IMG/VR virus record: IMGVR_UViG_3300048592_000962
Location: 1-64,000 of that record
DNA from: a virus
DNA length: 64,000 bases
Reading direction: 5' to 3' (one strand)
The notes beneath the pieces were generated by a model. The model had not been told where the DNA came from and did not search any database. It worked only from the letters and a program-made list of their open reading frames with translations. How positions within the stretch are numbered: the stretch's first letter is position 1; each line of letters starts with the position of its first letter. A program made the translations under genes and the position numbers. Positions 30,419 to 63,565 of the stretch are shown here, one piece after another.

Positions 30419-30446
30419 GTTTGCGTCTTTCGTCTATTCGGTGCGG

Positions 30447-30520
30447 CGGAAAAGGTTGGACTCGAACCAACGACAGCCGACTTAGAAGGTCGGTGCTCTA
30501 TCCAGCTGAGCTACTCTTCC
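30447..30520 (-). tRNA. tRNA-Arg(UCU)
   Basis: GGAAGAG/CTTTTCC acceptor stem, D-arm GCTC..GAGC, anticodon stem CCGAC-CTTCTAA-GTCGG, T-loop TTCGAGT; CCA not encoded. Confidence 0.93.
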
Positions 30521-47466: not shown

Positions 47467-48066
47467 ATGCCGATGCTCCGTCGATCTCACTACCAACGTC
47501 GCTACAACGCTGCGGTCGGAACGGTCGAGCCCTACCGAGGGACAGACCAGACGGTCGCGGTGATGTCGAGGCTCGTCCGCGACATACGTCCGCGTCAGAT
47601 GATTTCGACGGCGTTGGAGAGCGAACGCAGTCTGAAGGTGAGACGTCACACGGAGCAGATCGTCGGCAACATCCGGCCGAAGGACTACAGCTCCGAGATC
47701 ATCGCCATCTGCAAGTGGTGGGGCAACGCCGGCAGGTACACGAGAGATCCGCTTCACGTCGAGATGCTCCGAACACCAGAGCGTTTGATCGATGATGCGA
47801 TGGCCGGGAAGCTCGCGGCGGATTGCGATGAGTTCGCGACGGCAATCGCGGCCTGTTGCCTCGCGGTTGGGTCCAGGGCTCAGTTCGTCACCGTCGGATT
47901 TCAGCCGAGGCTTCCGGGTCAACCGAAGATTCACACGCACGTGTTCTGCCGGGCTCAGGACCCTCGAACCAAGGTTTGGTGGGTGCTGGATCCTGTCGCA
48001 GGACGCCGGACCGCTCAGATGCTGAAGCGGGTCAAGCAGTACACGATCTTCGAGGTGGATTCATGA
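47467..48066 (+). CDS. Transglutaminase-like cysteine protease (candidate maturation protease)
   Basis: Y.RDP..VE, ADCDE (Cys), HTHVF (His), WWVLDP (Asp). Confidence 0.8.
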   Translation: MPMLRRSHYQRRYNAAVGTVEPYRGTDQTVAVMSRLVRDIRPRQMISTALESERSLKVRRHTEQIVGNIRPKDYSSEIIAICKWWGNAGRYTRDPLHVEMLRTPERLIDDAMAGKLAADCDEFATAIAACCLAVGSRAQFVTVGFQPRLPGQPKIHTHVFCRAQDPRTKVWWVLDPVAGRRTAQMLKRVKQYTIFEVDS

Positions 48067-48353
48067 GTTACTACCTCCGCAAGGGACCGATAGGGTCTAC
48101 CGAGCCGATGGAGCTGTCGCCTGCGGCAAGGACCGTCTCGGTGGGGTATCGCGTGGGTGCCGCGGTGGCGACGCCCCTGCTCGTGTATCACGGCTACCGA
48201 CGCAACGAGTCGATCGGCTGGGCTGTGGTCTGGGGGCTCATCGGTGGCGGATTCTGGGTGTTCGGGGTGCCACTGGCGCTCGCTCAGGGGTTCGCGAAGC
48301 GAAAGGTGCGATCGAACGCGAGGCGTCGTCGCACGAGCAGGAGAACGCGATGA
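48063..48353 (+). CDS. Small membrane protein with SN-poly-Arg tail
   Basis: YHGYRRNESIGWA..; ends KVRSNARRRRTSRRTR. Confidence 0.7.
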   Translation: MSYYLRKGPIGSTEPMELSPAARTVSVGYRVGAAVATPLLVYHGYRRNESIGWAVVWGLIGGGFWVFGVPLALAQGFAKRKVRSNARRRRTSRRTR

Positions 48354-49198
48354 CGTACGGCGTGATGGGTTTGGGTTTGGACGCGGCGTCGATTGGCCGA
48401 GCGGTGGCCAGCGCCTACGGGACGCAGCGGCCCCCGCCGTCCGCGTCTTCGGGTTCTGCGCCACAGCAGTCGAGTTCGATGGCTTCTCAGATCGGCCGAG
48501 CGGTGGCCAGCGCCTACGGGACGCAGAAGGCGCCTCCGACAGCCACGCCCGGCACCTTGTTCACGAGATCACAGCCTGCGCGAGTCGGTCATGCGGCTGC
48601 GCAGGATCCGATTCTGGGGTCCGCGTCCCTGATGGCCGCGTCTCTTCTTCGACAGGTGTCCGGGCTCCCGGAGTCGAAGAGAATCGACGCGGCACGCAGG
48701 AAGCTCAACGAGATCCACCCTGGTCTCGGGAACACAGCCGTGTCTAAGGCGAAGGAGCTTCGCCGCAAAGGGCGTCCGTTCAACCAGGCGTTGTTCGATG
48801 GGATGCGGCTGGCGATCGCCAATCGCGTGGCCGAGTACACCGCGTCTCGCATGGGTGTCTCGGGACTCGGCGCGGTGAAGACCGAGAACTTGCAGGCGGG
48901 GTTCTGCGCGATGATCGGCGCGGGGACGGCGGGCGCGGGCATGGCGGCAGCTTTCAAGAACCCGACGGCCACCGAGGGGATTCTGTCGTCGGGGCAGGCG
49001 GGGGGTCAGATCGCAGGTTGTGGGGCTGGGACGCTGTCTCAGCAGGCAGCGGCGACGCAGGCTCAGCTGGATGCAGCAGCAGCGGCAGCGGCGGCGAGTT
49101 CGAGTTCGGGCGGGGGCACCTCGCCGTGGCTTTGGGCGGGGCTCGGGCTCGTCGCGATTGCGGGCATCGGCCTGGTGGTGGTCAAGGCGAAGTCATGA
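48350..49198 (+). CDS. Tail-anchored membrane protein (paralog group A)
   Basis: VMGLG, VSGLG; IGRAVASAYGTQ twice; C-terminal TM. Confidence 0.7.
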   Translation: MTYGVMGLGLDAASIGRAVASAYGTQRPPPSASSGSAPQQSSSMASQIGRAVASAYGTQKAPPTATPGTLFTRSQPARVGHAAAQDPILGSASLMAASLLRQVSGLPESKRIDAARRKLNEIHPGLGNTAVSKAKELRRKGRPFNQALFDGMRLAIANRVAEYTASRMGVSGLGAVKTENLQAGFCAMIGAGTAGAGMAAAFKNPTATEGILSSGQAGGQIAGCGAGTLSQQAAATQAQLDAAAAAAAASSSSGGGTSPWLWAGLGLVAIAGIGLVVVKAKS

Positions 49199-49902
49199 GC
49201 TACGCGCGTCGACAGAACCCGTCGGTGATCAGCGTGGGCCGTGCCGCCCACCGCGATCCCATCCTCGCGCAGGCATCTCTCGCCGCCGCGAAGATTCTTC
49301 GACAGGCCGTCTCCAAGCCTCGGTCGGTCCGGGAAGATTTCGTCCGAAACTCGTTGACGAGCAAGTACGGAACAGAGGCTGCTCGGTCCTACGAACGAGC
49401 GATGCGACGACTGAAGTCGAAGGGGTGGGCGAGGAATCAGTCCATCTACGATGCGATTCGACTCTCGATCGCCGATGCTCTGACACGAGAAGGACTTCTC
49501 GCAATCGACACAGCGATCAAACAGGAGATGGGCGTAGATCACGGTCTCGGGATCTCCGAGAAAGGTCGGCAGGTGGGCTGCGGCATCACGGGCGGAGTCA
49601 CGCTCGTAGGTGGGATCGTCGCGTCGATCTACGGCGGGCAGGCGGGCGGCACGGGGGCGAATGTTGGTGGTCAGCTGATCGGAACAGCGCTCGATTGCAG
49701 CAAGGCCGAGCGTGAGGCGGCTCAACGTCTCGCCGAGCAGCAAGCAGCGGCGGCTCAGGCTGAGCTGGCGCGGACGCAAGCGCTGGCCGAGCAAGAGGCC
49801 GCCCGAGGCAAGGAGACCACGAAGCGAGTTCTCGTGGTTGCGGGCATCGGCGGAGCTGTCGCGTTGGTGGGGCTCATCGGATATGCGATCGTGAAGGTCT
49901 GA
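49195..49902 (+). CDS. Tail-anchored membrane protein (paralog group A)
   Basis: VGRAAHRDPILAQAS matches VGHAAAQDPILGSAS; DHGLG; C-terminal TM. Confidence 0.7.
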   Translation: MSYARRQNPSVISVGRAAHRDPILAQASLAAAKILRQAVSKPRSVREDFVRNSLTSKYGTEAARSYERAMRRLKSKGWARNQSIYDAIRLSIADALTREGLLAIDTAIKQEMGVDHGLGISEKGRQVGCGITGGVTLVGGIVASIYGGQAGGTGANVGGQLIGTALDCSKAEREAAQRLAEQQAAAAQAELARTQALAEQEAARGKETTKRVLVVAGIGGAVALVGLIGYAIVKV

Positions 49903-49916
49903 GGCTGGAGACGACC

Positions 49917-51326
49917 ATGAAGGATTACGGCGACCTCTTCGACGACGATTACGGCGTGATGCCCCGCCCCACGATGCGCGGGTCTGCGAATCTCGACGTT
50001 CAGGACTACCAGGGGTACGACGGAGATTCGTCGATCCTCGACGACGATCTGCAAGAGGACACGCCCTCGCGCCCTGGCTCGGGCGCCGCGCCGGCACCGG
50101 ACATCGACGGTACCGACGACTACGACTTCCTCGAAGGCGACATGGACGATCCGGGCATGAAGCAGACGACCTACGGCGCGTCGCCGTGGGGCCCCGGTTC
50201 TTCCTCGGGCTACCGCCCGTACAGCCAGCAGCGAACGGACATGGCGCTCCGCGCTCTCGGCGATAGCCACACTCCGGAGACCAAGCCGATGCACGACGAC
50301 GAGATGATGCTGGAACCCGAGGTCATCGACGCGGTGGGCGCGAAGCCGATCGAGCCGTGGTCCAAGGAGTGGCACGGCAACCAGAACCAGATGCCGTCCA
50401 ATGCGGACATCGACCCGCTCACTCTCTACGATCGCTCGTCGTACGAGTACGACGACGACTCGTCTCAGTCGACGATCGGAAGCGGCATCTTCGACGTTGA
50501 AGAGGGCGTCACCTTCCGTCCTCGCGATGGCATCTTCGCCAACCAGTATGCGGTACCCGCGTACCTGGCAGAAGAGGATGAGCTGGGCGTGCAGCAGTCG
50601 GAGATGTGGGATTCGACGGCCGGCGAGTGGCGAGTCACTCAGCCTTCGGCGTCGGGTGTTCCTCTCTCGCGGAAGGTGCGGAAGCTGAAGCCTCCGCCGG
50701 CCGGTCTTCGTCCGGAAAAGACCGGGCCGAGGTCGCACGTCGAGGCCTTCGGTCGAAAGGCGGCGCGTACGCTTCTTCAGGAAGCTCAGGCGCATCAGGG
50801 CGCGAATCGTGAGCGCTTCATGGCGAATGCGATCTCCGCTCTCGGCCCGAACATGACGGTCACGGCGCGAAAGATCGCAGACGAGCTGATTCGTCTGGGG
50901 TATCCGGCCAACGTGGCGTTCGAGGATGCGCTCGCGCACTGCGTGATGCACGCGGCCGTTCGCGATCTGTTCGAGCGCGCCACCGGCAAGACGCGGAGCA
51001 TGCTCCCTCGCCTGGACCGAATGGCGAACACCGTGCAGCGGCGCAGCTCCGAGATGCGTGAGCACGCGAGCAAGCACCTGCTGCCTCTCACGCGCAACAC
51101 CGAGGACCTTCGGCGCGATCTCGGCGCGCTGTACGCGAGCCCGTGCGCCCGTGGTCTTGGGCAGGCGGCGGAAGGCGAAGCGCCGGTTGCGACGGCGCCC
51201 ACTCCGGCGGCGTCGATGATGACGACGCGGAATGTTCTGATCGCAGGCGGCCTCGGTCTCGGCGCGTTCCTGGTCTACAAGAACCGCAAGAAGATCGTCG
51301 CGAACGTCAAGAAGATGGTGAGGTGA
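49917..51326 (+). CDS. Membrane protein with long acidic N-terminus
   Basis: D/Y-rich N-terminus, ARGLG, TM, KKIVANVKK. Confidence 0.7.
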   Translation: MKDYGDLFDDDYGVMPRPTMRGSANLDVQDYQGYDGDSSILDDDLQEDTPSRPGSGAAPAPDIDGTDDYDFLEGDMDDPGMKQTTYGASPWGPGSSSGYRPYSQQRTDMALRALGDSHTPETKPMHDDEMMLEPEVIDAVGAKPIEPWSKEWHGNQNQMPSNADIDPLTLYDRSSYEYDDDSSQSTIGSGIFDVEEGVTFRPRDGIFANQYAVPAYLAEEDELGVQQSEMWDSTAGEWRVTQPSASGVPLSRKVRKLKPPPAGLRPEKTGPRSHVEAFGRKAARTLLQEAQAHQGANRERFMANAISALGPNMTVTARKIADELIRLGYPANVAFEDALAHCVMHAAVRDLFERATGKTRSMLPRLDRMANTVQRRSSEMREHASKHLLPLTRNTEDLRRDLGALYASPCARGLGQAAEGEAPVATAPTPAASMMTTRNVLIAGGLGLGAFLVYKNRKKIVANVKKMVR

Positions 51327-51330
51327 AGCC

Positions 51331-51624
51331 GTGCGAGCAGACGATTACGTGAGCGACGACGCGAAGTACGCGCAGCAGGTCGAAGACATGAGCGGCGTGC
51401 ACCATCACCAGGCGGGCATGGCGCCCTATCCGCTGTACGGTGTGCCTCCGCTCGGGCAGGAGATGGAGGTCGCGATTCCGTTCTATCGCCGGCCGATCTT
51501 CTGCTACCCGGTCGGCATCGCGATCGGATTCGGCATCGGCTACGCGTTCTTCGAGTGGTTCAAGCCGAAGTACATGAAGTCCAACGGCAAGAAGAAGAAG
51601 TCGAAGGACGAATCGGAGGAGTGA
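51331..51624 (+). CDS. Small tail-anchored membrane protein
   Basis: PPLGQ, TM, MKSNGKKKK. Confidence 0.65.
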   Translation: MRADDYVSDDAKYAQQVEDMSGVHHHQAGMAPYPLYGVPPLGQEMEVAIPFYRRPIFCYPVGIAIGFGIGYAFFEWFKPKYMKSNGKKKKSKDESEE

Positions 51625-51625
51625 C

Positions 51626-51949
51626 GTGAGCTACAAGGTCAACAGGGCGCTCGGGTTTCAGCGCTGGGGCGTGACGAATCCGTTCGTTTTCGCTGACCTC
51701 AGCCAGCCGCAACGGCTCCGTGGCGGTGTCTCTCCAGTGGTGTTTCAGACGCAGCCTCCATCGCTTCGATCGGTTCATCTCGGTCAGCTTTCGCCGGCCG
51801 AAGAGCTGAAGAGAGCGGAGCGCATGGAGACGATTGCGATTGCGGGATTCGCGGTGAGCTTGGCCTCGCTGTATCTCGGCTGGCAGCAGTTCAGCAACAA
51901 GAAGAAGATGGCCTCCAATCGGAGGAAGCGAAGGAAGGCAGCGCGATGA
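51626..51949 (+). CDS. Small tail-anchored membrane protein
   Basis: HLGQ, TM, MASNRRKRRK. Confidence 0.65.
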   Translation: MSYKVNRALGFQRWGVTNPFVFADLSQPQRLRGGVSPVVFQTQPPSLRSVHLGQLSPAEELKRAERMETIAIAGFAVSLASLYLGWQQFSNKKKMASNRRKRRKAAR

Positions 51950-52836
51950 CGTACTACGCAACCGCCGGTCTCGGGTACGGCGTGGACATCTCTCACTACG
52001 GTGCCCCCTACCAGGGCATGCTCGGCCTTGGGCAGGCGACGTGGTCGCCGGGTCCGGGGCAGACACCGGCCGATGATCCGCGCATGGTGAAGAAGTTCGC
52101 CGTGGTGCGGTCGGTCTATCGCGTGCGGAACGTTCCGAGCGACAAGGCGGGACGCCTCGCAGATCTTCTTCTGTCCCGCGCGAGAACCCTGTTTCAGGGG
52201 AGCACGGTCCGGAAGATCGGGACGACCGGTTGGATGAACGACGGTCGTGTCGGATTCGAGGTGATTCTCGCCGCCGCGACGCGCGCCGGAGAGATCAAGC
52301 TCCGAAACGCAACGGCGCGTGACGTGGCCGGTCAGCTCGGTGGCGGAGCCGAGTTGTACGATGCGCAGACGATCATCTCGCCAACGGACTACATGCCGCT
52401 CGAAGACACTATGCTCCCGCCCGGCGAGCAGCCGGTGGCGACGATGGACTCGACTGGGACGCGCACGATCGGCGGCCTTCCGATCTGGGCCGCAGCAGGC
52501 ATCGGCGTCGCCGCGCTCGGAGCGCTCGCGTTCGTTATGACGCGGAAGAAGCCAGTAACCTCGAACCGACGTCAGCGAGCGCGACGTCGGATGAGGCCCA
52601 ATGGCCGTCCGGAGTTCGCGACCAAGGCCGAAGCCGAGTCGATGATTCGCGATCTGAACGCCACCTACAAGCGCATGGGATACCCGCCTCCGTCGCCTCC
52701 GATGCGTGCGGTACCAGATGGCAACGGCTGGAAGATCACCAGCGACCTTCTTGACTCGATCTACGGCGATAAACCGAAGAGTCGCAAGCGCAAGGTGTCG
52801 AAGAACATCTTGAGGCGACGCTCTGCCAGGAGGTGA
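51946..52836 (+). CDS. Membrane protein with a post-TM domain
   Basis: AGLGYG, MLGLG, TM, VTSNRRQR..MRPNG, extra domain, VSKNILRRR. Confidence 0.7.
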   Translation: MTYYATAGLGYGVDISHYGAPYQGMLGLGQATWSPGPGQTPADDPRMVKKFAVVRSVYRVRNVPSDKAGRLADLLLSRARTLFQGSTVRKIGTTGWMNDGRVGFEVILAAATRAGEIKLRNATARDVAGQLGGGAELYDAQTIISPTDYMPLEDTMLPPGEQPVATMDSTGTRTIGGLPIWAAAGIGVAALGALAFVMTRKKPVTSNRRQRARRRMRPNGRPEFATKAEAESMIRDLNATYKRMGYPPPSPPMRAVPDGNGWKITSDLLDSIYGDKPKSRKRKVSKNILRRRSARR

Positions 52837-52839
52837 GTC

Positions 52840-53382
52840 GTGAGCTACTCGCACCTTGGGTCTGCGCTGATCGGCCCGCAGAGAGCCACGAGCAGCGCGA
52901 AGAAGCCGGTTCTTCGCGTGAACCCGAAGCTCAAGCTTTCGCTGTCGCCATCCGCGATCAAGCCGAAGTCGGTGCTCGTGGTCGGCCCGAGCATTTCGTC
53001 TGCGCCGAAAGCTCCGGTGGTCACAGCCAAGCCCCCGCCTCCGGTCTTGTTCTTGCCGGCTCCGAAGCCGCCGGTGATGTCGACTCCTCCGCCCGCCGCG
53101 CCCCCGCCTGCGGATTCGACTCCGAAGCCGCCGGCAGATGTGTGGTCGGATTGGGAGACGGGGTCGCCGGAGATGCCGGCGGCAGCTGAGCAATCTGTCT
53201 ACGAGCCTCCTCCGCCAGAGGTTCAGGAGCCATCGCAGGCCGAACCGCTTGTGCCTGCAAAGTCGCTGCCGTGGGCGTGGATCGCTCTCGGGCTGACGGC
53301 CACTGCGCTCCTCGGGTACGCGGTGTTCAAGCGCAAGCCCGTGTCGCCGAACCGTCGGCGTCGTCGGAGGTCTCGTCGATGA
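52840..53382 (+). CDS. Pro-rich tail-anchored membrane protein
   Basis: MSYSHLG, TM, VSPNRRRRRRSRR. Confidence 0.7.
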   Translation: MSYSHLGSALIGPQRATSSAKKPVLRVNPKLKLSLSPSAIKPKSVLVVGPSISSAPKAPVVTAKPPPPVLFLPAPKPPVMSTPPPAAPPPADSTPKPPADVWSDWETGSPEMPAAAEQSVYEPPPPEVQEPSQAEPLVPAKSLPWAWIALGLTATALLGYAVFKRKPVSPNRRRRRRSRR

Positions 53383-54095
53383 GTTATGCGCTTGGACAGG
53401 CGGCCGATTCCGCTTTGAAGGAGCAGACGGCCTTTGCGGAACAGACGTCGCTGACGGAGTTCTCCGACGGCTCGATCGAGGTGAGCAGTCCGAAGGTTGT
53501 GGTCTCTGCGCAGTACCGCGGTCAGTTCAGCGTGTACACGCAGCAGGGAACGAACCCGCCGTACATCGTCGTGTCTCGCGCGGATGCGCAGGCGAGAGGA
53601 GTGCCGATTCTGGCCGATCCGTGGGCCGCTTATCAGGCGGGTCAGAAGTTGCCCGCGCCGATGGCGGCTCAGGTGAAGGCGAGCGGCGTGCCGATTCCTC
53701 AGGCGGGCAAGCGGTGGATCCCGTGGGCGCTCGTGGGCGGCGGCTTGGCTGTCGCGCTCGGCCTTGTGCTCATGGTGTCGTTCAAGAGCATGAAGCCGAA
53801 TCGTCGTCGACGTCGTCGGCTAAGAGAGAACATGAGTCGTCGCGTTCCCTACGACAGCAAGCCGGTCACCAAGCATGGCAAACACGGGACCATGTATTTG
53901 TACGAGATCGAGTTCGAGGAGGATGAACGCGACGACGGGAGGCCGGAGTGGATGAGACGCTGGCAGACGTATGCTTACGATCAAGAGCATGCGATCGAAA
54001 GCTTTTACGAGTCATACGACCGCTCAAATCCGGGTGCGTCGTTGGATCTTCCGGTGAAAGTCGTTTCCGCGAAGCGGGTGATGAGGCGTCAATGA
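53379..54095 (+). CDS. Membrane protein with a post-TM domain
   Basis: MSYALGQ, TM, MKPNRRRRRRLREN, then an acidic/aromatic domain. Confidence 0.7.
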   Translation: MSYALGQAADSALKEQTAFAEQTSLTEFSDGSIEVSSPKVVVSAQYRGQFSVYTQQGTNPPYIVVSRADAQARGVPILADPWAAYQAGQKLPAPMAAQVKASGVPIPQAGKRWIPWALVGGGLAVALGLVLMVSFKSMKPNRRRRRRLRENMSRRVPYDSKPVTKHGKHGTMYLYEIEFEEDERDDGRPEWMRRWQTYAYDQEHAIESFYESYDRSNPGASLDLPVKVVSAKRVMRRQ

Positions 54096-54652
54096 GCTAC
54101 CTGAGCGGTTACGGCGGAAGGCGCGCGTTCGGTGGGTTTGGGTACGGCTCGCTGGGCTCCGCCTTTCAGATCGGACCTACCAGCGACTCCCTGCGCTCCC
54201 TCCAAAGAGAGCTGGCGCGACTCGGCTACCTTCAGGGCGACAACGGTCCGTTCGGCGCCGATGGGTACTGGGGCCCTCGAACGGCTCTGGCTCTTCGGCA
54301 GGCGGCGACGTACTTGCGCTGGACGGATGCCCCCTACACGCCGACGAATGCGGACTCGTTGCGGTCCGGGTCGGTTGAGGTTCCGGACGATCTGATCGCT
54401 CGAATCCGAGCGGCGTCTCCTGACCCGAACGCAAGCCGCGCCGGGTCCGACCAGCCCGCGTCGATCGTCGACCCTGTCGACCCGGCGCCGTCTACCTCAC
54501 CGGTTCCTTCGACGCGTCTCGCGCGAGCCCCGTGGGTTGTTCCGGTGGCGGTGGGAGGGGTCACGCTGCTGGCGGTGGGTGCGCTCCTGCTGACGCGTGG
54601 GAAGAAGCCGGTGACATCGAACCGACGTCGGCGAGCGCGACGGCGCCGCTGA
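54092..54652 (+). CDS. Peptidoglycan-binding (PGBD) tail-anchored protein
   Basis: LQRELARLGY...ADGYWGPRT..AL; LSGYG; TM; VTSNRRRR. Confidence 0.75.
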   Translation: MSYLSGYGGRRAFGGFGYGSLGSAFQIGPTSDSLRSLQRELARLGYLQGDNGPFGADGYWGPRTALALRQAATYLRWTDAPYTPTNADSLRSGSVEVPDDLIARIRAASPDPNASRAGSDQPASIVDPVDPAPSTSPVPSTRLARAPWVVPVAVGGVTLLAVGALLLTRGKKPVTSNRRRRARRRR

Positions 54653-54685
54653 TTTCGGGTACCGTAGGGCCAAGGCTGGGCTGGT

Positions 54686-55381
54686 ATGATCTACACCGAC
54701 GAAGAACTGAGCGAGATCGAGGGCTACGACGAGGACGACGAGGAGTCCGCCGCTCCGATGGTGGCGGCTCACGGGTCCTCGGGCGCATCCATGCAGGCAC
54801 CCGGAGCGATCCCGCTCTACCCACTTTCCCTGGCTCACCTTGGGCAGCAGCCGTCACCAGCGGCGGGAATGCTGGGCTTCGTGAAGAAGAAGGTCGGTCC
54901 GCTGCCTGTGTGGGCGTGGGCCGCGCTGGGCGTGGGTGTTGCGGGCGGCGGATGGTACTTCCTCAGTCGTCGCAAGAAGTCGGAAGGATCTGGCGAGGAA
55001 GATGCTGGGGGTCTCGCACAGAACGACGGCGGAGGAGATTCCGCACCGGCCGGCTGGTCGCCGAGTCGGTCGAGCTTCGCGGCTCAGTTGCAGCGTTTCT
55101 TCGACAAGAAGGGTCTCACGCAAGCGGTCGTTGTCTGGCATGACGCCGAGGACGCGCAGCGCAAGGGGAAGCTGAAGTTCGTTTCCCCGTTGATCAACGT
55201 GCAGGTCAAGGACAAGTCGGTGAAGGTCGACGCAGCGCTTCAGAAGTTCTGTCGTCGCGAAGGCCTGAACCCGACGCAGCACGACGATGGTTCAATCGGC
55301 CTCTACCCGCACACGGGCAAGAGGGGCAAGGCATGGGAAGACTACGTCGACGCACTGCGTGACGATGGTCAGCAAGTGTGA
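54686..55381 (+). CDS. Membrane protein
   Basis: HLGQ; KKVGPLPVWAW TM. Confidence 0.65.
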   Translation: MIYTDEELSEIEGYDEDDEESAAPMVAAHGSSGASMQAPGAIPLYPLSLAHLGQQPSPAAGMLGFVKKKVGPLPVWAWAALGVGVAGGGWYFLSRRKKSEGSGEEDAGGLAQNDGGGDSAPAGWSPSRSSFAAQLQRFFDKKGLTQAVVVWHDAEDAQRKGKLKFVSPLINVQVKDKSVKVDAALQKFCRREGLNPTQHDDGSIGLYPHTGKRGKAWEDYVDALRDDGQQV

Positions 55382-55388
55382 GGAAACC

Positions 55389-55835
55389 ATGAGCTACCAC
55401 GGACTCGGACAGGCATCGACGACGCTCACCAACACGACCACTGCGACCGTTGCGTCGATTCAGTGTGCCCTCCGTGCTCGTGGGGCGTCTATCTCAGTTG
55501 ATGGGCGGTTCGGTCCGAACACGCGCGCAGCGCTCGTGAGTCAGCAGACAGCGTATCTGCCGTCGGTGATTGGTCTACTCTTCCAGGATGCGTCGACTGG
55601 TGCGTCCTCGATTCAGATCAACAAGACGTTCTACGAGTGGCTCATGGGCAGTAGCTCATGTCGCGGGGCGACGCCGAGCGCGCCGAGCGCGCCGACAGAG
55701 ACGACTGTGCCGGAGTCACCGATCGAGATGCCTGTCGAGAGCGAGGGCACATCGTGGAAGATGTGGGCTCCGATCGGCGGCGCGGTCGCCCTTGTCGGGC
55801 TCGGCGTATACTTCCTGAAGCGCCGGAGGGGATGA
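55389..55835 (+). CDS. PGBD-like tail-anchored protein
   Basis: MSYHGLGQ; IQCAL...VDGRFGPNTRAAL; TM plus KRRR. Confidence 0.7.
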   Translation: MSYHGLGQASTTLTNTTTATVASIQCALRARGASISVDGRFGPNTRAALVSQQTAYLPSVIGLLFQDASTGASSIQINKTFYEWLMGSSSCRGATPSAPSAPTETTVPESPIEMPVESEGTSWKMWAPIGGAVALVGLGVYFLKRRRG

Positions 55836-56671
55836 TGCGATCTCTTGGACAGGTGCCGGCGCCGACTCTTCTCACGGGTTACTCGGCGCTCCAGACAGCG
55901 ATTATCGCCTTCGAGTCGAACGCTCTCACGCGCGCGGTGGTCCGCGCCTCGTCGGGCATTCCGGCGAACGTGATCGTGAAGGCCTTTGAGACGGCGCGGA
56001 CGAAGGCGTCATCGGCTCAGCCGCGAGAGATGTCGGAGACGGACGTCTTCGCGATGCTGCTGGGAACGCTCACCCAGGCTCGCACAGATCTCGTCCGCGC
56101 CAAGCTGTTCATGTACTCGACCGCGTCGGGGAACACAGCGGCGAGAGGAAAGTTCGAGCAGATACTCGCGGCAGATTTGCAGATGCTCCAGCAGGTCAGC
56201 AACATCTTGTCGCGAATGGTCGCCGAGGGCGCGATGCCGACTCTTACGAGACTCGTCGGAGGCACATCGGGGCTCGGGTTCATCACGATCGCGATCTCAG
56301 CCCTGCGGCTGGTGTGGTCGGCGATTCAGGCGTGGCAGGTGATTCAGGTTCGTCGTGAGAGGTATCTGCGTGAGCAGATTGCTCTGTGCGAGGAGCTGAC
56401 GCGTCGCGGGACGCCGTGTACACCGCAGCGGGTGGCGGAACTTCAGGCGGAGCTTCAGCAGCTCACCGATACGCCTGCGGCGAGGTTCTTGGACAGCGTC
56501 GGCGAGGGCATTCGCAACGTGACGAGCCCGTTCGACAACGTGGGCCAGGGGATCGGCAAGGGGCTGAAGATCGGCATTACCACGCTCTCGGTGGGCGTCG
56601 GACTCGTCGCGCTCTGGTGGGCGTGGCCTCTGATCAGCTCGACCAGGCGCAAGCGACGCGAGGCCGAGTGA
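55832..56671 (+). CDS. Helical membrane protein
   Basis: SLGQ, TSGLG, two hydrophobic segments. Confidence 0.65.
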   Translation: MMRSLGQVPAPTLLTGYSALQTAIIAFESNALTRAVVRASSGIPANVIVKAFETARTKASSAQPREMSETDVFAMLLGTLTQARTDLVRAKLFMYSTASGNTAARGKFEQILAADLQMLQQVSNILSRMVAEGAMPTLTRLVGGTSGLGFITIAISALRLVWSAIQAWQVIQVRRERYLREQIALCEELTRRGTPCTPQRVAELQAELQQLTDTPAARFLDSVGEGIRNVTSPFDNVGQGIGKGLKIGITTLSVGVGLVALWWAWPLISSTRRKRREAE

Positions 56672-57183: not shown

Positions 57184-57767
57184 CCTCCAAGCGGACATCC
57201 CGTCGCTTCGTGAAGAGACGAACCTCGCGACTTGCGAGAAACGGCAAATCATCTCGTCGATCTACTCAGAACAAAGACGTTCGTCGACTCATTGATCTTG
57301 CGGAGTCGCAGGGTTGGGCCATCGAGACGACGGGTGGAAATCACTTACGGTTCATTCCTCCGGATCCCACCAAGCCGATGGTGCATACGTCGAGCACGCC
57401 CTCCGACCGCCGGGCGGTGCAAAATCTTGAGGCGCAGCTGAGGAAGTCGGGCTTGATCGTCGCCAAGCAGGACGACAAGAAGTCGCCGAAGAAGAATCCG
57501 TCGAGCGAGCCGTGGCTCATGCGGGATTACCGTGCGGGGATGATGTTGGAGTTCATCCTCGGTGATCGAAACGCGGGGGTGCCTCCCGGCACTGTCGCGG
57601 TTGTCGATGCGGTTCGAGGCGGCGGTCTGGACGTCACCATCATGGACTCGTACGACCCGTCGTTGGTCGGCGAGCGTGTGGCGGTGGAGCTGGTCTACGA
57701 GCGGGATGGGCGGCTGCATCGAACGACGCCAGATCAGCTGGCGCTCTACTGGCGCACGGTGGAGTGA
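57180..57767 (+). CDS. HicA-like domain protein with an Arg-rich leader
   Basis: LIDLAESQGW...GGNHLRF..P...SSTPSDRRA..N...LRKSG. Confidence 0.65.
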   Translation: MTSKRTSRRFVKRRTSRLARNGKSSRRSTQNKDVRRLIDLAESQGWAIETTGGNHLRFIPPDPTKPMVHTSSTPSDRRAVQNLEAQLRKSGLIVAKQDDKKSPKKNPSSEPWLMRDYRAGMMLEFILGDRNAGVPPGTVAVVDAVRGGGLDVTIMDSYDPSLVGERVAVELVYERDGRLHRTTPDQLALYWRTVE

Positions 57768-58138
57768 TGCGGAGCCGAGGTGCAGGTTGTACGATCCGAG
57801 CGGCCAGCACGGGTCGAGTTCTTCTATTGAGGAGAAGCCCCACGTGCCCGCCGGGCGGAGTTTGGTCGATTCCAGCGGGCGGTGTAGATCGCGGCGAAAC
57901 GGCCATCTTTGCGGCCCTTCGTGAGTTGGAGGAGGAGACCGGTTTCTGCGGCGACGTGTCAATACTGTTTCATTCGCAGGACAGTCAGTTTCTCAATCTT
58001 GCTTGCGAGGTGAAGTCTGAATTCCGCGTAAGGCTGAACTGGGAGAACGACGCAGCGGGGTGGTTCGACATCGATGACTTGCCAGATCCGTTGTACCGGG
58101 GACTTCGTCCGTTCCTGAGGCGAGTCGTCTCGTGGTAG
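57764..58138 (+). CDS. Nudix hydrolase
   Basis: GGVDRGETAIFAALRELEEETG (Nudix box); LNWE. Confidence 0.85.
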   Translation: MMRSRGAGCTIRAASTGRVLLLRRSPTCPPGGVWSIPAGGVDRGETAIFAALRELEEETGFCGDVSILFHSQDSQFLNLACEVKSEFRVRLNWENDAAGWFDIDDLPDPLYRGLRPFLRRVVSW

Positions 58139-58508: not shown

Positions 58509-59290
58509 TTCGTCGTCGTATCGCTCGACCGGGCCAAGAGCTTCAGGCGAACGGAGCGTCCCCCTTGCGAGGCCGGGCGGCCATGGACACGCGCTTCGGC
58601 ACTGAGGTCGACCCGGACGAGGTCTCGGGTCGCGCCGGCAAGAGTGTCGAGGGCGCGATGGGCCGGTACGAAGTGTTCCACGCGAAATCGCCGCTTCGCG
58701 TGGTCGACCTCGAACACGATCTTCCGCGCGACTGGGTGTGCGTCGGCGAGTGCCTTGCGGTCATGTACCGCACCGACAAGTGGCACGAGGATGGCGACGA
58801 CGAGGACTACAAGCATCTGCACGATGAGGGGGACGATCGTCCGTACCGAGTCGGACGAGGCGTGAAGTTCTACGAACCGAAGACCGAGTGGGCGCGGTCT
58901 ACGATCGACGGGAAGCCTCGTCCCCGCAAGAACCCGCCCAAGAGTCAGCGCCTGCCCGTGGGCCTTCCCGAGGCGGTGACGCTGCTGGGGTATTGCCTTG
59001 GCTTCTTCGTTCGACTGCATCCCGAACACGCACCTCTTTCGGAGGCGGACTACAACGCCGCGATGGACTTGATGTCCGCTGCGAGCGCTGGAGACGAAGA
59101 CGCTCGGCAGATGCTCGACGAGATGGCTATCTACGAGGTGAACCCGCGTGGCTGCTGGCTGTTCTGTTCGCCCAAGGGAGACATGCTGACGGTCTACTCG
59201 CCGGACGAACAGCCGGACGGGTCGTCCGGGTTCCTCTGCGCGATGGCCGGTGGCAAGTTGCGAGTGCTGAAGGACGGGATCGACGGTTGA
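58505..59290 (+). CDS. Hypothetical protein
   Basis: YRTDKW..YKH.H; RKNP; ends GIDG. Confidence 0.6.
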   Translation: MIRRRIARPGQELQANGASPLRGRAAMDTRFGTEVDPDEVSGRAGKSVEGAMGRYEVFHAKSPLRVVDLEHDLPRDWVCVGECLAVMYRTDKWHEDGDDEDYKHLHDEGDDRPYRVGRGVKFYEPKTEWARSTIDGKPRPRKNPPKSQRLPVGLPEAVTLLGYCLGFFVRLHPEHAPLSEADYNAAMDLMSAASAGDEDARQMLDEMAIYEVNPRGCWLFCSPKGDMLTVYSPDEQPDGSSGFLCAMAGGKLRVLKDGIDG

Positions 59291-59293
59291 GTC

Positions 59294-59722
59294 ATGTGGC
59301 AGGCGTTCAACAACGTTCTTGAGAAGGGCGGCATCGTCGCCGCTCTTTTCTTTGTTGTGATCGCAGCCAGTGGCTTTGCGATCTGGTCCCTCTGGAAAAG
59401 CAGCAGAGAGCAGCAGAAAGAGTTTCTCGATAAAATCGAGAAGCTTACCGCGTCACATGACAAGGCCATCGCCGAACTCACGAAGGCGCATGCCGAGGCG
59501 GTTGAAGCGTTTTCACAAGAGGTTGGCGCTCAGATCGAGGCTGTCGTACTCAAGAACGACGAGCTTCAGAAGAGACTAGACGCCATTCAAGAGCGCCGCG
59601 TGGTGGACACGAAGGACAACGCGGAAAGGCTGATGTCGTACATCAAGCATTTTGACGCGTTCGTGCTGAAACTGGAGAGCGCGATCGACGTGCTTCTTCG
59701 CGCCGGTCGATCAGGAAGGTGA
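59294..59722 (+). CDS. TM plus coiled-coil protein (holin-like)
   Basis: N-terminal TM followed by a coiled coil. Confidence 0.45.
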   Translation: MWQAFNNVLEKGGIVAALFFVVIAASGFAIWSLWKSSREQQKEFLDKIEKLTASHDKAIAELTKAHAEAVEAFSQEVGAQIEAVVLKNDELQKRLDAIQERRVVDTKDNAERLMSYIKHFDAFVLKLESAIDVLLRAGRSGR

Positions 59723-60056: not shown

Positions 60057-62771
60057 GTGGGTCTGGCTTACAAGCGGAGTACGACCAAAACGGCCCGTGC
60101 CTACGAGCGATCGAGGGGCATGGAACCGAATGGTGGTCTTCGGCCGAATCCCGGCGTGACTGCGCTCATGACAGTCAATCCGCGACGTGGTCGTGGTCGC
60201 GTGCGTGAGAACCCGTTCCAGTGGATCGAGGGTCGAGGGCAGCGACATCGGCACGTTTCGAAGCCCTATGCGTCGCTGGATGCGGCTCGTGGGTGGAAGA
60301 AGCGGAGTCCGGCTACCAAGGCACGTCTTTACCCCGTCGATGAACGTGGGACGATCGTCTCGCGTCCCCTCAGCTCGAAACTCACAGGAAACAGAGGGAG
60401 TAGCAGCATGGCGTACAACATCGGTGCACTCCGAAGGGCGATGCGATCGAACCCCAGGGGTACGGGCTCGTCCATGTCCGAGCACGCCTCGACGGGCGGA
60501 GTGTCGGTGCGCTCGAACGGCCGCAAGCGTCGGAAGGCGTCGCGCAAGGCGAGCCGTCGTCGCGTCAGTCGCAACCCGAAGTACGTGGTGGTGAACCGCA
60601 AGCGACGCTCGCGCAAGGCGAGTCGTCGTCGGGTGACGCGCAACAGCCGTCGTCGCCGCAGCCGCCGGACTTCGGTGCGTCGGAACAGTCGTCGTCGTCG
60701 GAGTCGTCGCACGTCGATGCGTCGCAACAGCCGTCGTCGCCGCAGCCGCCGGACTTCGGTGCGTCGGAACAGCCGTCGTCGTCGGAGTCGTCGTCGGATC
60801 TCGCGCAACCGGTCGAGCCGGTCGAGCGCGTCGACGGCGGCGTACCGCAGCGGCTACGATCGGATCTTCGGCAAGAAGAAGAGGTCGTCCAAGCCCGCGT
60901 CGGCTCGCAAGACGTCGAAGAAGAGCGGACGGAAGTCGTCGCGCCCGATTCGCACGATCGAGATCGAGGAGACGGTCACCGAGATCAAGCCGCGTCGTCG
61001 CAAGTCTTCGCGGAAGTCCTCGCGGAAGTCGTCCGCTCGCAAGTCGAGCCGTCGGTCGTCCGCCAGGGGTCGTCGTTCGTCGAGGAAGAGCGGCCGTCGG
61101 TCGCGTCGTTCCTCGAAGAAGGGCGGCTACTACTTCGGTCGTCGTCGGGTCAGCAAGCGCGGGAAGGAGTACCTCGACAAGTACATCACCCGCGGCTACA
61201 TGCCCTCGGTCGCGCCGGTGTACCGCACGGGCAAGTCTCGTTCGGGTCGCCCCGCCGTCCTCGTGTACCCGCCGGGTACGGGTCACGGTCGTCTCTCCTC
61301 GCGGAAGGGTCGTGGTCACACGTCCAAGGGTCGCGGCAAGCGTCGCGTGAGCGCTCGGGCGTACGGCGCGAGCTTCTTCGGGGCGAGGAAGCGCCGCGTG
61401 ACGGCGAACCGCCGTCGGAGCCGTCGTCGCAGGAGCCGTCCGGGTCTCTACGCGAATCGTCGGCGGAGCCGTCGTCGCCGGAGCCGTCGGTCGAGTCTGC
61501 GTCCCAACCGTCGCAGGAGCCGTCGGAGCCGTCGTCGCCTGACCCGCAACCTGCTCACGACGAGCAAGGCGCGGTTCTCGGGTTCGGGCAAGAGCCGCAA
61601 GGGTCGCCCGACGGGCAAGACGTTCCAGGTGCTGATGTACGGTCCGAAGTCCAAGACCAAGAGCGGTCGGCGGATGTCGGGCTACCCGGTCTACGTTCCG
61701 GGTCACGTCGTGGAGCGTGGTGCGGTGCGTCGCTACCGGAAGCTCGGTGGTGCGGCTCTGGACGCACATCGTCGTGCGACCAGCGCGGGATACCGCGAGA
61801 GGAAGAAGTACCCGAAGCGTCGCGGCGTGACGCGGAACAGCCGCAGGAGCAGGAGGACCAGCATGCGTCGGAACCCCAGGTACGTGGTGGTCAATCGCCG
61901 CCGTCGCAGTCGTCGAAGCAGCCGCAAGGCACGGCTTCGCAGGAACCAGACGGTGTTCGGTGCCGACCTCACGCGCGACGTGCTCAAGCCGGTCGCCGGT
62001 GGCACGGCGGGCTTCGTGGCGGCTCGTCTGCTCTCCAACGGTCTCGCCAACGTCGAGATGCTTCGCGGCATCCTCGACAAGGACAAGAGCGCGGCGGAGG
62101 CGGGCAACACGAAGATCGCGGCGAACCTGCTCGGGATCGTGGCGACGCTCGGCCTGGCCCGGAAGGTCAAGGTCATCGGCGACAACCGCGGTGCCCTCGT
62201 CACGGGCATGGGTCTCGCGCTCGCCGATCGTCTGCTCGCGAAGTTCGCGGGTGACTCGGGCTACCTCTCGGGCTTCGGCGAGTACGTCTCGCAGCCGCTC
62301 GGGGAGTACGTCTCGCAGCCGCTCGGCGCCTACGTCTCGGACCCGTCGATGGGCGAGTACGTCGACCAGCCGCTCGGCGCCTTCGAGGCGGCGGCCGGCA
62401 TGGGCACGCTGTACGCGGCGGCCGGCTACCACGAGGGCATCGATCCCGCCGATCAGGGCTCGGTCGACGGTCTCATGGACGTCATGGAAGCGGCGGCCGG
62501 CATGGGCAGCCCGATGATGTACGCGACCGCGGGCATGGGCACGCTGTACGCAGCGGCCGGCATGGGCGCCGAGGCGGATGCGGAGCTTCAGGCGTACTAC
62601 GCCAGCCAGCAGCCGCCCTTCGTCTCGACGCAGACGCCCACCGATCTCGCGCGTCCCGTCACGCACGTGATGCCCCACGACAAGCGCGTTCCGACGTCGC
62701 TCGTCACGCCCGAGGGCAAGGGCTACGCGGGTGGTCTCTTCGCGCGCAACCTCTTCGCGGGGATGTTCTGA
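60057..62771 (+). CDS. Protamine-like Arg/Ser-rich protein with membrane domain (candidate core protein); alternative start at 60408
   Basis: About 600 aa of R/S/K-rich sequence with RRNSRRRRSRRTS repeats, then a hydrophobic domain, LSGFG, GEYVSQPL and AAAGMG repeats. Confidence 0.75.
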   Translation: MGLAYKRSTTKTARAYERSRGMEPNGGLRPNPGVTALMTVNPRRGRGRVRENPFQWIEGRGQRHRHVSKPYASLDAARGWKKRSPATKARLYPVDERGTIVSRPLSSKLTGNRGSSSMAYNIGALRRAMRSNPRGTGSSMSEHASTGGVSVRSNGRKRRKASRKASRRRVSRNPKYVVVNRKRRSRKASRRRVTRNSRRRRSRRTSVRRNSRRRRSRRTSMRRNSRRRRSRRTSVRRNSRRRRSRRRISRNRSSRSSASTAAYRSGYDRIFGKKKRSSKPASARKTSKKSGRKSSRPIRTIEIEETVTEIKPRRRKSSRKSSRKSSARKSSRRSSARGRRSSRKSGRRSRRSSKKGGYYFGRRRVSKRGKEYLDKYITRGYMPSVAPVYRTGKSRSGRPAVLVYPPGTGHGRLSSRKGRGHTSKGRGKRRVSARAYGASFFGARKRRVTANRRRSRRRRSRPGLYANRRRSRRRRSRRSSLRPNRRRSRRSRRRLTRNLLTTSKARFSGSGKSRKGRPTGKTFQVLMYGPKSKTKSGRRMSGYPVYVPGHVVERGAVRRYRKLGGAALDAHRRATSAGYRERKKYPKRRGVTRNSRRSRRTSMRRNPRYVVVNRRRRSRRSSRKARLRRNQTVFGADLTRDVLKPVAGGTAGFVAARLLSNGLANVEMLRGILDKDKSAAEAGNTKIAANLLGIVATLGLARKVKVIGDNRGALVTGMGLALADRLLAKFAGDSGYLSGFGEYVSQPLGEYVSQPLGAYVSDPSMGEYVDQPLGAFEAAAGMGTLYAAAGYHEGIDPADQGSVDGLMDVMEAAAGMGSPMMYATAGMGTLYAAAGMGAEADAELQAYYASQQPPFVSTQTPTDLARPVTHVMPHDKRVPTSLVTPEGKGYAGGLFARNLFAGMF

Positions 62772-62821: not shown

Positions 62822-63565
62822 ATGGCACGTCGTCGCAGGACTCGCCGAAGCTCGCGTCACATCCGCATGAACAGCCGTCGTCGGCGTCGTCGGAGCAGCC
62901 GCCTCTCGCTGAAGATGAACCGACTCGTTCGGAACATGTTCGGGGCGGACATCGCCAAGGACGTCGTGATCCCGGTTGCGGGCGGCGTCGTGGGCTTCGT
63001 CGCCGCTCGCTACCTCGGCAACATGCTGGCGGAGAAGGGGCTGATCAGCTCCGACCCTCGTGTCGGCAAGTCGCTCGCGGCGGCGGCAGGCATCCCGGCC
63101 ACCTTCTTCCTCGCGAAGAAGAGCCCGGTGGTGTCGCGCAACAGCAACATGATCGCGCTCGGCATGGGCCTGGCGGCGGCGGAGGGGTGGCTGCGAGACA
63201 TGCCTCTGCTCGGCGGCAGCCCGGCGGCGGCGGCGTTGACCACGCCGGCTCCGGCTCCGGCTCCGACGGGTGATGGCACGTCCGGCATCGGTGCCTACTA
63301 CAGCGCGCCGATGGCTGGTCTCGCCGACTACTACTCGGAGGGGATGCTCGGCGGTCTCGGGGCCGATCCGGGCAACCAGGGCGCGGTCGAGGACGTGATG
63401 GACGCGATGGAGTCCGTTTCGACGGTGACTCCGACGGACCTGGCGATGCCGGCTCCGAATCGTCCGGAGGTGGCTCCGATCGCCGAGCCGTTCGCGGCTG
63501 GCGACAAGGGGTACGCGGGCGGCTTGTTCGCGCGCAACCTCTTCTCGGGGATGTACGGATCCTGA
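62822..63565 (+). CDS. Shorter paralog of the core/membrane protein
   Basis: FGAD..DV..PVAGG..GFVAAR and C-terminal KGYAGGLFARNLF.GM are shared with 60057-62771. Confidence 0.75.
   Translation: MARRRRTRRSSRHIRMNSRRRRRRSSRLSLKMNRLVRNMFGADIAKDVVIPVAGGVVGFVAARYLGNMLAEKGLISSDPRVGKSLAAAAGIPATFFLAKKSPVVSRNSNMIALGMGLAAAEGWLRDMPLLGGSPAAAALTTPAPAPAPTGDGTSGIGAYYSAPMAGLADYYSEGMLGGLGADPGNQGAVEDVMDAMESVSTVTPTDLAMPAPNRPEVAPIAEPFAAGDKGYAGGLFARNLFSGMYGS

Follow-up and report, generated by a model that had tools for sequence, protein, structure and literature searches.

A probable DNA-condensing core protein with recurrent hydrophobic-x-x-Asn sites in a large virus of apparently bacterial hosts

Protein-condensed genome cores are textbook features of adenoviruses, baculoviruses, ascoviruses and a few archaeal viruses, and bacterial viruses are thought to pack naked DNA by means of a motor. 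Internal proteins cut by prohead proteases are known from phages, i.e. IPI-III of T4 (cut by gp21) and the inner-body proteins of phiKZ (cut by gp175). Here we describe a gene for a very basic protein of 904 amino acids (aa), located in a 64,000-nucleotide (nt) stretch of viral DNA (positions 1 to 64,000 of the IMG/VR record IMGVR_UViG_3300048592_000962; this whole stretch is called the window below). This record holds a viral genome of 159,872 bp, flanked by direct terminal repeats and rated 100% complete by CheckV. We regard the product as probably a DNA-condensing virion protein, whether cleaved or uncleaved; to the fuller reading, in which it is a membrane-linked DNA-condensing core protein processed at asparagine sites, we give slightly less than an even chance.

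In adenovirus, the highly basic, histone-like proteins pVII and pre-Mu (pX) fill the capsid together with the genome and are trimmed by the cysteine protease AVP, which recognizes (M/I/L)XGX-G or (M/I/L)XGG-X sites with a hydrophobic P4 residue and gives small, very basic peptides; the core protein amounts to 25-30 MDa per 36-kb genome (PMC4246237). The ascovirus protein P64 (64 kDa, isoelectric point 12.2), a virion protein of a double-stranded DNA virus of 100-200 kb, combines a structured N-terminal part with a tandem array of 14 Arg/Ser units of 13 residues each; these units were shown experimentally to condense DNA in vitro (PMC6163548). In the case of baculovirus P6.9, DNA binding is switched by Ser phosphorylation (PMC6163548; PMC12159748).

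The 904-aa protein contains 184 R, 108 S and 58 K residues. Its residues 1-630 consist of 36% R+K and 15% S and have a net charge of +206, in line with the initial annotation of the window, which described about 600 residues as mostly R/S/K; the net charge is +4 for residues 631-735, -13 for the tail (residues 736-904) and +197 for the whole chain. The initial annotation had also pointed to approximately 20 hydrophobic-x-x-N sites. We define this motif (h-x-x-N) as V, M, L or I at position -3 (P4) of an Asn (P1), with any residues at P3 and P2. All 23 Asn of residues 1-640 fit it, with V (10), M (6), L (6) or I (1) at -3, while shuffles of the same residues (n=5000) gave a mean of 3.9, a standard deviation of 1.8 and a maximum of 11, which bears the earlier observation out. 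In the rest of the genome, V/L/I/M stand at -3 of 27% of Asn, which can be taken as the background. The absence of Asn elsewhere in the first 630 residues looks like avoidance of unwanted sites.

The motif is a property of the whole protein family. The family counts refer to 47 sequences (46 homologues and the 904-aa protein) and to the Asn upstream of N630, of which 523 out of 748 (70%) fit the motif, compared to about 13% in per-sequence shuffles. Met, which is otherwise rare, is the commonest residue at -3 (232 cases). At N498, N594 and N613, Asn is found in 45 of the 47 sequences, each time with a hydrophobic residue at -3 in all 45 (M/L, M/V/I/L and V/I/L, respectively), and N630 is present in 47/47, with V/L/M at -3 in every one. 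N121 (Asn in 31 of 47; V/L/I/M at -3 in 30/31) and N132 (35 of 47; V/L/I/M at -3 in 35/35) are kept less often. Positions -2 and -1 (P3/P2) vary freely at the motif sites, whereas P4 and P1 are co-conserved; in contrast, most homologues have H or S in place of the Asn of a conserved C-terminal FARNLF sequence. As P3/P2 vary and the FARNLF Asn is not kept, h-x-x-N is a short linear motif set by P4 and P1, and not a reflection of a general conservation of Asn. The P2 and P1' residues at the motif sites are mostly R, A, P and S.

An AlphaFold2 (AF2) model was built on the 47-sequence alignment. In this model 601 of the 904 residues are disordered, with a predicted local distance difference test (pLDDT) score below 50. 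The gene and the parts of its product are as follows:

60057..62771, + strand: gene for the basic core-type protein (open reading frame (ORF) list, GC content of third codon positions (GC3), Shine-Dalgarno sequence, 46 homologues)
60057..60452, + strand: conserved N-terminal head, residues 1-132 (AF2, alignment, site conservation)
60453..61118, + strand: basic tract I, residues 133-354, net charge +90, disordered with pLDDT below 50 (charge, AF2, Tandem Repeats Finder)
61119..61286, + strand: conserved middle element, residues 355-410 (homologues; AF2 pLDDT about 47-56)
61287..61550, + strand: basic tract II, residues 411-498, net charge +41 (sites N451, N467, N484, N498)
61551..61838, + strand: conserved beta-rich domain, residues 499-594, with N498 and N594 as its borders (AF2, near-invariant columns)
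61839..61946, + strand: basic tract III, residues 595-630 (sites N606, N613, N630)
61947..62261, + strand: Gly/Ala-rich three-helix module, residues 631-735, FGADL...PVAGGTAGFVAA... (AF2, hydropathy)
62262..62771, + strand: mildly acidic C-terminal tail, residues 736-904 (Tandem Repeats Finder, charge, family conservation)

The head comprises a small alpha/beta domain (residues 53-112, nt 60213-60392; pLDDT 85-93 for residues 50-110) and a helix at residues 122-130, which are bracketed by N52, N112, N121 and N132; its conserved blocks in the homologue alignment are NPFQWI...RLYxVDExGT and MAYNxxxLRRAMRxN. The middle element (GKEYLDKY...GYMPSVAPVY...PAVLVYP) is predicted to form short strands and is free of Asn. 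The beta-rich domain (QVxxYGPKSK...GYPVYVPGHV...VRRF..GGAA.DAH) has strands within residues 500-559 and a helix at 566-577 (pLDDT 51-67), and basic tract III holds a conserved RRNPRYVVxN-RRRR-...-RRN element. The helices of the three-helix module are predicted at residues 638-664, 683-701 and 711-730, with pLDDT 70-82. The sites N52, N112, N121, N132, N498, N594 and N630 form the borders of every folded block, and the folded blocks are devoid of any other Asn.

Basic tract I holds 14-aa tandem units (nt 60639-60793) with eight h-x-x-N sites. Tandem Repeats Finder detected the 14-aa (42-nt) units claimed by the initial annotation at 60642-60781 (period 42 nt, 3.3 copies), and the same array is also readable with a period of 84 nt (98% matches, 60639-60793). 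The motif cannot be a by-product of this repeat, since approximately 18 of the 23 sites lie outside the array and they are conserved across homologues.

The tail contains GEYVSQPLG repeats (nt 62275-62379; a 24-nt, i.e. 8-aa, GEYVSQPL-type unit in 4.2 copies according to Tandem Repeats Finder), AAAGMG/TLYAAAG repeats and a conserved end, TPEGKGYAGGLFARNLFAGMF. The acidic repeat tail described earlier thus exists as far as the GEYVSQPL array and the AAAGMG repeats are concerned, but its acidity is only mild. Its suggested role of an intramolecular chaperone has to be rejected, as a net charge of -13 stands against +206 and the tail is located beyond the hydrophobic helices. The earlier overall reading therefore stands in part: the protein is real, conserved, very basic, mostly disordered and encoded in the late block, but without the acidic-tail chaperone.

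The 904-aa ORF (60057-62771, stop codon included) starts with GTG, preceded by an AGGGAG Shine-Dalgarno sequence 10 nt 5' of it, and the MALVYKRS-type N-terminus is common to the protein and its homologues. Its GC content at codon positions 1/2/3 is 0.61/0.62/0.81, while an overlapping antisense ORF of 947 aa has the mirrored values 0.80/0.62/0.60 and was rejected as a shadow frame. Because GC3 is 0.81 against this mirror image, we consider the 904-aa ORF the real coding frame; the ORF list, codon-position GC and homologues all confirm it as first described. The gene lies within a same-strand late/structural block, directly 5' of putative capsid-like genes. No convincing terminator was found between the genes of the block, as the few + strand matches near 59000-59350 were within shuffle expectation. 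A NUDIX hydrolase gene (window 57764-58138, +) is found 5' of the core gene and occupies the same place in the relatives L003 and L008. The next gene is a short paralog:

62822..63565, + strand: 247-aa paralog of the 904-aa protein (ORF list, motif, synteny)

The paralog begins with a 38-residue Arg-rich head with three h-x-x-N sites, followed, as in the long protein, by an FGADI...helical module, a Tyr/Gly-rich tail and a GYAGGLFARNLF end. The gene order, i.e. long gene, short paralog and a gene of about 270 aa for a putative capsid-like protein, is kept in all four related contigs (171, 220, 166 and 106 kb). This fixed position between membrane-protein genes and putative capsid-like genes in all relatives, together with the C-terminal motifs common to the paralog and the motif-plus-poly-Arg code common to the membrane proteins of the block (see below), makes it very improbable that the protein is not a virion component at all, being an intracellular factor, e.g. 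a host-nucleoid compactor or an RNA-binding protein, merely encoded in the late region. What speaks for such a factor is that Arg-rich disordered proteins bind any nucleic acid.

The 46 homologues have 500-950 aa, come from contigs of up to 220 kb and are all unannotated. Their identity is 36-81% over the C-terminal 280 residues, and the C-terminal module is the best-conserved part of the family. In one relative (L008, a 220-kb contig from the Joint Genome Institute (JGI)) the long protein is split in two genes, L008:8875-9888 and L008:10001-11767; the first of them (337 aa) encodes the conserved head and the basic tract, and the second (588 aa) the remainder. The short form is also present in a second contig (P0020). 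This natural two-gene form means, therefore, that the modules can work as separate chains.

The membrane module exists alone as the paralog, and it is always preceded by an h-x-x-N site. It is conceivable that this module is an entry or genome-delivery device of an inner membrane: a cut at N630 would expose a fusion-peptide-like Gly/Ala-rich N-terminus, and the basic region would serve mainly as an escort of the DNA at ejection, not as its condenser. In non-enveloped viruses Asn cleavage commonly frees membrane-active peptides, e.g. the nodavirus gamma peptide and reovirus mu1N, and this parallel, like the strong conservation of the module, its separate paralog and its constant position after the motif, agrees with such a device. 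On the other hand, 500-650 protamine-like residues and the poly-Arg tails on many membrane proteins would be left unexplained. Moreover, fold searches with the full-length model (VIA-align wide, Foldseek PDB) gave only generic helical-bundle matches, or weak matches to PsaL, a three-helix membrane subunit which the module resembles weakly, and these covered residues 631-737 only (Z<=7.3, E>=0.18). We consider an entry device improbable.

Neither the 904-aa protein nor its paralog belongs to any family according to the Pfam and PHROG scans (904-aa protein against Pfam-A, E<=0.1: 0 matches). With the paralog as a query, tblastn against 50,697 phage records gave no match, and HMMER, run exhaustively over 1.84 billion cluster representatives, found only 45 proteins, all of them short or long members of the family, which is thus, judged by its sequence, confined to a rare lineage. 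The 47-homologue profile matched, among PDB sequences, only engineered poly-KR peptides and eL24, which are low-complexity matches (E>=0.01). The neighbouring 261-aa gene had no usable match in the ESM Atlas, and in the literature searched we found neither the lineage nor the protein described. One homologue (P0043) is named linker histone H1/H5 by JGI. The 904-aa protein has no Pfam match to the winged-helix Linker_histone family, and the name is a reflection of the Ala/Lys-rich low-complexity tract present in some homologues.

The motif is not restricted to the core protein. At least 10 further proteins of the genome have a hydrophobic helix followed, after a few residues, by h-x-x-N and then an Arg/Lys run, e.g. 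VTSN-RRQRARRR, MKPN-RRRRRR, MASN-RRKRRKAAR and VTSN-RRRRRR (138695-139642). The same layout of helix, h-x-x-N and poly-Arg was found in all four related loci, in 1-7 proteins per locus. In the window it is seen in one run of genes:

49917..54095, + strand: five consecutive membrane-protein genes with a helix, then h-x-x-N and a poly-Arg/Lys run (sequence, relatives)
49917-51326, 51331-51624, 51626-51949, 51946-52836 and 53271-54095, + strand: the five genes (helix and motif layout)

In many proteins of the virion block (window 48350-56671, genome 71077-71346), the sequence opens with M-(S/T)-Y and contains motifs of the form Y-x(n)-[LM]-G or LGQ. The Y-x(n)-[LM]-G units are of the same kind as those that recur in the tail of the 904-aa protein, so the tail's repeats are also present in other virion-block proteins. 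From the sequence it looks like a second shared motif, placed on the opposite side of the hydrophobic helix from the Asn motif.

If the motif is a cleavage code, an enzyme has to be sought, and one gene at the head of the structural block comes into consideration:

47467..48066, + strand: 199-aa transglutaminase-like Cys-His-Asp protein (Pfam, homologues, AF2, Foldseek)

Its match to PF01841 is below the gathering score (18.1 bits versus a cut-off of 23, E 0.0034), and one homologue carries a precomputed PF01841 match. It has 158 homologues, of which the 120 listed are 58-100% identical, and some share contigs with homologues of the core protein (e.g. those of 152,857, 165,978 and 60,194 bp). 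In an alignment of 36 homologues C120, H158 and D175 do not vary, and they stand in the order of the transglutaminase-like cysteine protease triad. The AF2 model (pLDDT 79.5) has the putative Cys proteases 3kd4 and 3isr as its top PDB matches in Foldseek, followed by LapG (4u65), PNGase (2f4o) and TgpA/TglA (probability 1.00, E 2.5e-4 to 4e-3); the model thus has the transglutaminase-core fold. Judging from the model, it is the sole protease-type fold placed in the structural block and the best candidate for the putative motif-cutting enzyme. Its own residues 65-68 read I-V-G-N and directly follow an N-terminal stretch that is modelled poorly, so that the enzyme might process itself there. A DUF2201_N putative metallopeptidase with a VWA-like domain, encoded beside a MoxR-type AAA ATPase (window 27276-29749, -), is a further, non-structural protease candidate; a SprT-like search gave a sub-threshold match only, on this DUF2201 metallopeptidase.

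While the gene, its composition, the conserved motif, the domain layout and the synteny are direct observations, we infer presence in the virion, DNA binding, membrane insertion and, most of all, cleavage and the identity of the enzyme. A core protein that neutralises the genome is suggested because composition, disorder, size, position and conservation of the 904-aa protein fit such a role. Its approximately 630 disordered, protamine-like residues would bind and compact the 160-kb genome, the Gly/Ala-rich three-helix module would tie the nucleoprotein to a lipid layer of the virus, with the Tyr/Gly-repeat tail on the far side. [V/M/L/I]-x-x-N would be the recognition site of a virus-encoded enzyme, for which the 47467-48066 product is put forward. 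Cutting at all sites would separate the folded blocks, yield a 200-residue K/S/R-rich piece and free a dozen peptides of 12-19 residues with charges of +6 to +11; about 10 membrane proteins would also lose their poly-Arg tails, and the membrane module would acquire a new N-terminus directly ahead of the conserved FGxD(L/I/V) with which it starts. By arithmetic, approximately 800 copies with a net charge of +197 per chain neutralise half of the about 320,000 phosphates, which corresponds to about 80 MDa of protein per about 104 MDa of DNA, a ratio below the adenovirus figure.

Processing is the best single explanation of the motif because its sites stand at domain borders, the folded blocks are free of Asn, a two-gene form exists and a conserved Cys-His-Asp enzyme heads the block. 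Several observations weigh against it, or against the membrane link. First, the 19-residue Kyte-Doolittle maxima of the three helices are 1.1-1.3, i.e. under the usual transmembrane threshold, so the membrane domain proposed by the initial annotation stands as three predicted helices (residues 638-730) but not as clear transmembrane segments. The maximum is 1.79 in the matching first helix of the 247-aa paralog. We regard the module as probably membrane-associated, and "membrane-anchored" as plausible but marginal on hydropathy. Signal peptides are missing from the long basic regions and likewise from the large N-terminal domains of the single-helix proteins, so that both should be cytoplasmic, although a lipid layer would have to lie between them. 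Second, no match to legumain (Peptidase_C13), caspase (Peptidase_C14) or adenain (Peptidase_C5, PF00770) was found in the six-frame translated genome (E<=1). Third, Pro, disfavoured by many endopeptidases, is frequent at P1'. Fourth, the transglutaminase-like fold also deamidates or cross-links. Finally, 13 of the 39 short-paralog representatives (P0169-P0207) start with M-x-x-N (MRRN, MRSN, MKSN, MKKN or MTRN), the initiator Met serving as the hydrophobic position, and one of these starts was confirmed inside a long contig; a cut would remove four residues only, and the motif may be a binding signal instead or also. Non-proteolytic readings keep some weight, given that genes begin with M-x-x-N, that Pro often follows the Asn and that no known Asn-specific protease was detected.

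The same DNA-condensing role could thus be played by an uncut protein, with h-x-x-N as a multivalent binding signal, e.g. a docking site for an assembly factor, for a membrane or for the inner face of the capsid, or a base- or backbone-contacting element in the Arg runs. Ascovirus P64 offers a precedent, being a large, uncleaved cationic protein of R/S units that condenses DNA (PMC6163548), and a cut in the many short paralogs starting with M-x-x-N would release nothing useful; the Pro often found at P1' and the failure to detect any Asn-specific protease family also suit an uncut protein. However, the occurrence of the motif exactly at the folded-block borders and between membrane helix and poly-Arg tail, and the missing Asn in the rest of the 630 residues, speak against a binding signal, and both the natural two-gene form and the conserved protease-fold enzyme heading the block argue for cutting. 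We consider an uncut core rather unlikely, yet a serious alternative.

Another kind of Asn chemistry might also be at work, namely self-cleavage by Asn cyclisation, as in nodavirus coat protein, reovirus mu1 (Asn-Pro) and FlhB/YscU, or deamidation or isopeptide cross-linking by the transglutaminase-like enzyme, whose action would then lock the nucleoprotein or release it. At P1', Pro and Gly are enriched (110 and 50 of 748 Asn, respectively), and Asn-Pro is the scissile pair of several self-cleaving viral proteins (MEROPS asparagine peptide lyases). Furthermore, the only enzyme candidate has a transglutaminase/PNGase fold, which acts on side-chain amides. Nevertheless, R, S and K are as common at P1' as P and G, transglutaminases use Gln and not Asn, and self-cleavage at Asn, where known, depends on folded catalytic surroundings. 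Most sites of the 904-aa protein have pLDDT below 50, though a monomer model says little of the assembled state. We consider such chemistry improbable.

The tmRNA, the tRNA-Arg and a downstream peptidoglycan-binding amidase point to a bacterial host. The tmRNA is located at window 20334-20684 (-) and has the tag ANDNAISHAAKAA; tRNA-Arg(TCT) is at window 30445-30520 (-). When the complete genome was searched in six frames (E<=1), Terminase_6N (PF03237), TerL_ATPase (PF03354), Phage_portal (PF04860) and HK97 Phage_capsid (PF05065) had no match, and neither had the packaging ATPases Pox_A32 and FtsK_SpoIIIE. Approximately 38 ORFs were compared with Pfam, and the 10 largest without annotation with PHROGs; replication and helicase genes were recognized among them, but no tailed-phage hallmark. 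A tail-less, motor-less virus is likely, with very divergent versions of terminase and portal being possible, as the negatives come from profile searches of a divergent genome, which is a further point against our reading. A tailless phage of Methylomirabilis was described with particles of about 55 nm (PMC5099504). Taken together, our data allow a broader proposal, which we make only tentatively and hold to be somewhat doubtful: a lineage of 150-220-kb bacterial viruses without a packaging motor, whose genome is co-condensed with a membrane-tethered protamine-like polyprotein and the poly-Arg tails of membrane proteins, and whose core is matured by a viral enzyme with a [V/M/L/I]-x-x-Asn specificity not known before.

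A few other genes deserve mention. A PAPS-reductase/DUF3440 gene and a ParB_N gene (genome 65853-67070 and 66974-67690), which form an IbrA/IbrB-like pair, are found among the putative capsid-like genes; the pair occurs beside a LAGLIDADG-like ORF in the relative L009 and is absent from L003, L008 and L010. Because of this patchy presence, it looks like a mobile insertion. A SNF2-family helicase gene (genome 127265-130486, -) is interrupted by an intein (Hint and LAGLIDADG homing endonuclease). Three PcfJ-like proteins are encoded at genome 74414-75772, 124256-125818 and 133107-135515, two of them fused to pentapeptide repeats. No match to the Metallophos phosphatase family was found in the genome. 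A 293-aa ORF (genome 87768-88649, +) has the kinase-like motifs GKGTFGHAF, HSDNMLRN and IGDIG, and it matches Pkinase below the threshold (13.9 bits). By analogy with the control of baculovirus P6.9, this ORF could be related to the Ser-rich core protein.

Compared with the core precursors of adenovirus, the likeness lies in a basic core, short sites with a hydrophobic P4 and small basic peptides, the latter predicted here. However, P1 is Asn and not Gly, so the AVP cleavage consensus is not matched; there is no sequence kinship, as the 904-aa protein has no Pfam family; and the genome has no adenain match, the candidate enzyme having a transglutaminase-like fold. In addition, a single 904-residue protein with about 23 sites and a membrane-type module is found here, in a virus with a bacterial host. 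Ascovirus P64 is similar in that tandem 14-residue Arg/Ser units occur here in a 101-kDa cationic protein (net +197). It differs in its vs2C-ad motifs (pfam08793), not found in the 904-aa protein by the Pfam scan, it lacks the h-x-x-N code, and neither cleavage nor a membrane link has been reported for it.

Baculovirus P6.9 and sperm protamines share the Arg/Ser-rich composition, and for P6.9 the kinase-like ORF 87768-88649 (weak Pfam match) may add to the likeness; they are, however, single-domain proteins of 5-15 kDa with no homology to the 904-aa protein in the Pfam scan. SPV1 of the Portogloboviridae, which has a nucleoprotein core with VP1 (PMC8459092), is a 20-kb archaeal virus, in contrast to the 160-kb bacterial virus considered here. 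The internal proteins of T4 and phiKZ are basic or internal, carry repeated short protease sites and are processed during maturation, as is proposed for our protein. Their phages, however, are tailed, package DNA by terminase and cut after Glu with herpesvirus-assemblin-type serine proteases, none of which was found here.

The membrane-containing phages PRD1 and PM2 have genomes of roughly 10-15 kb. If our interpretation is true, nucleoprotein-core assembly would be extended to bacterial viruses, at about ten times the PRD1/PM2 genome size, and the virus would offer a bacterial counterpart of the adenovirus/ascovirus core with the first Asn-directed viral maturation code. The occurrence of this code in the core protein and in about 10 membrane proteins gives a testable handle, with a candidate enzyme and defined peptide substrates. 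In summary, a virus-encoded protamine-like core protein, possibly cut at short sites, is a known kind of protein in eukaryotic and archaeal viruses; what is new here is a bacterial example, its membrane link and the h-x-x-Asn code.

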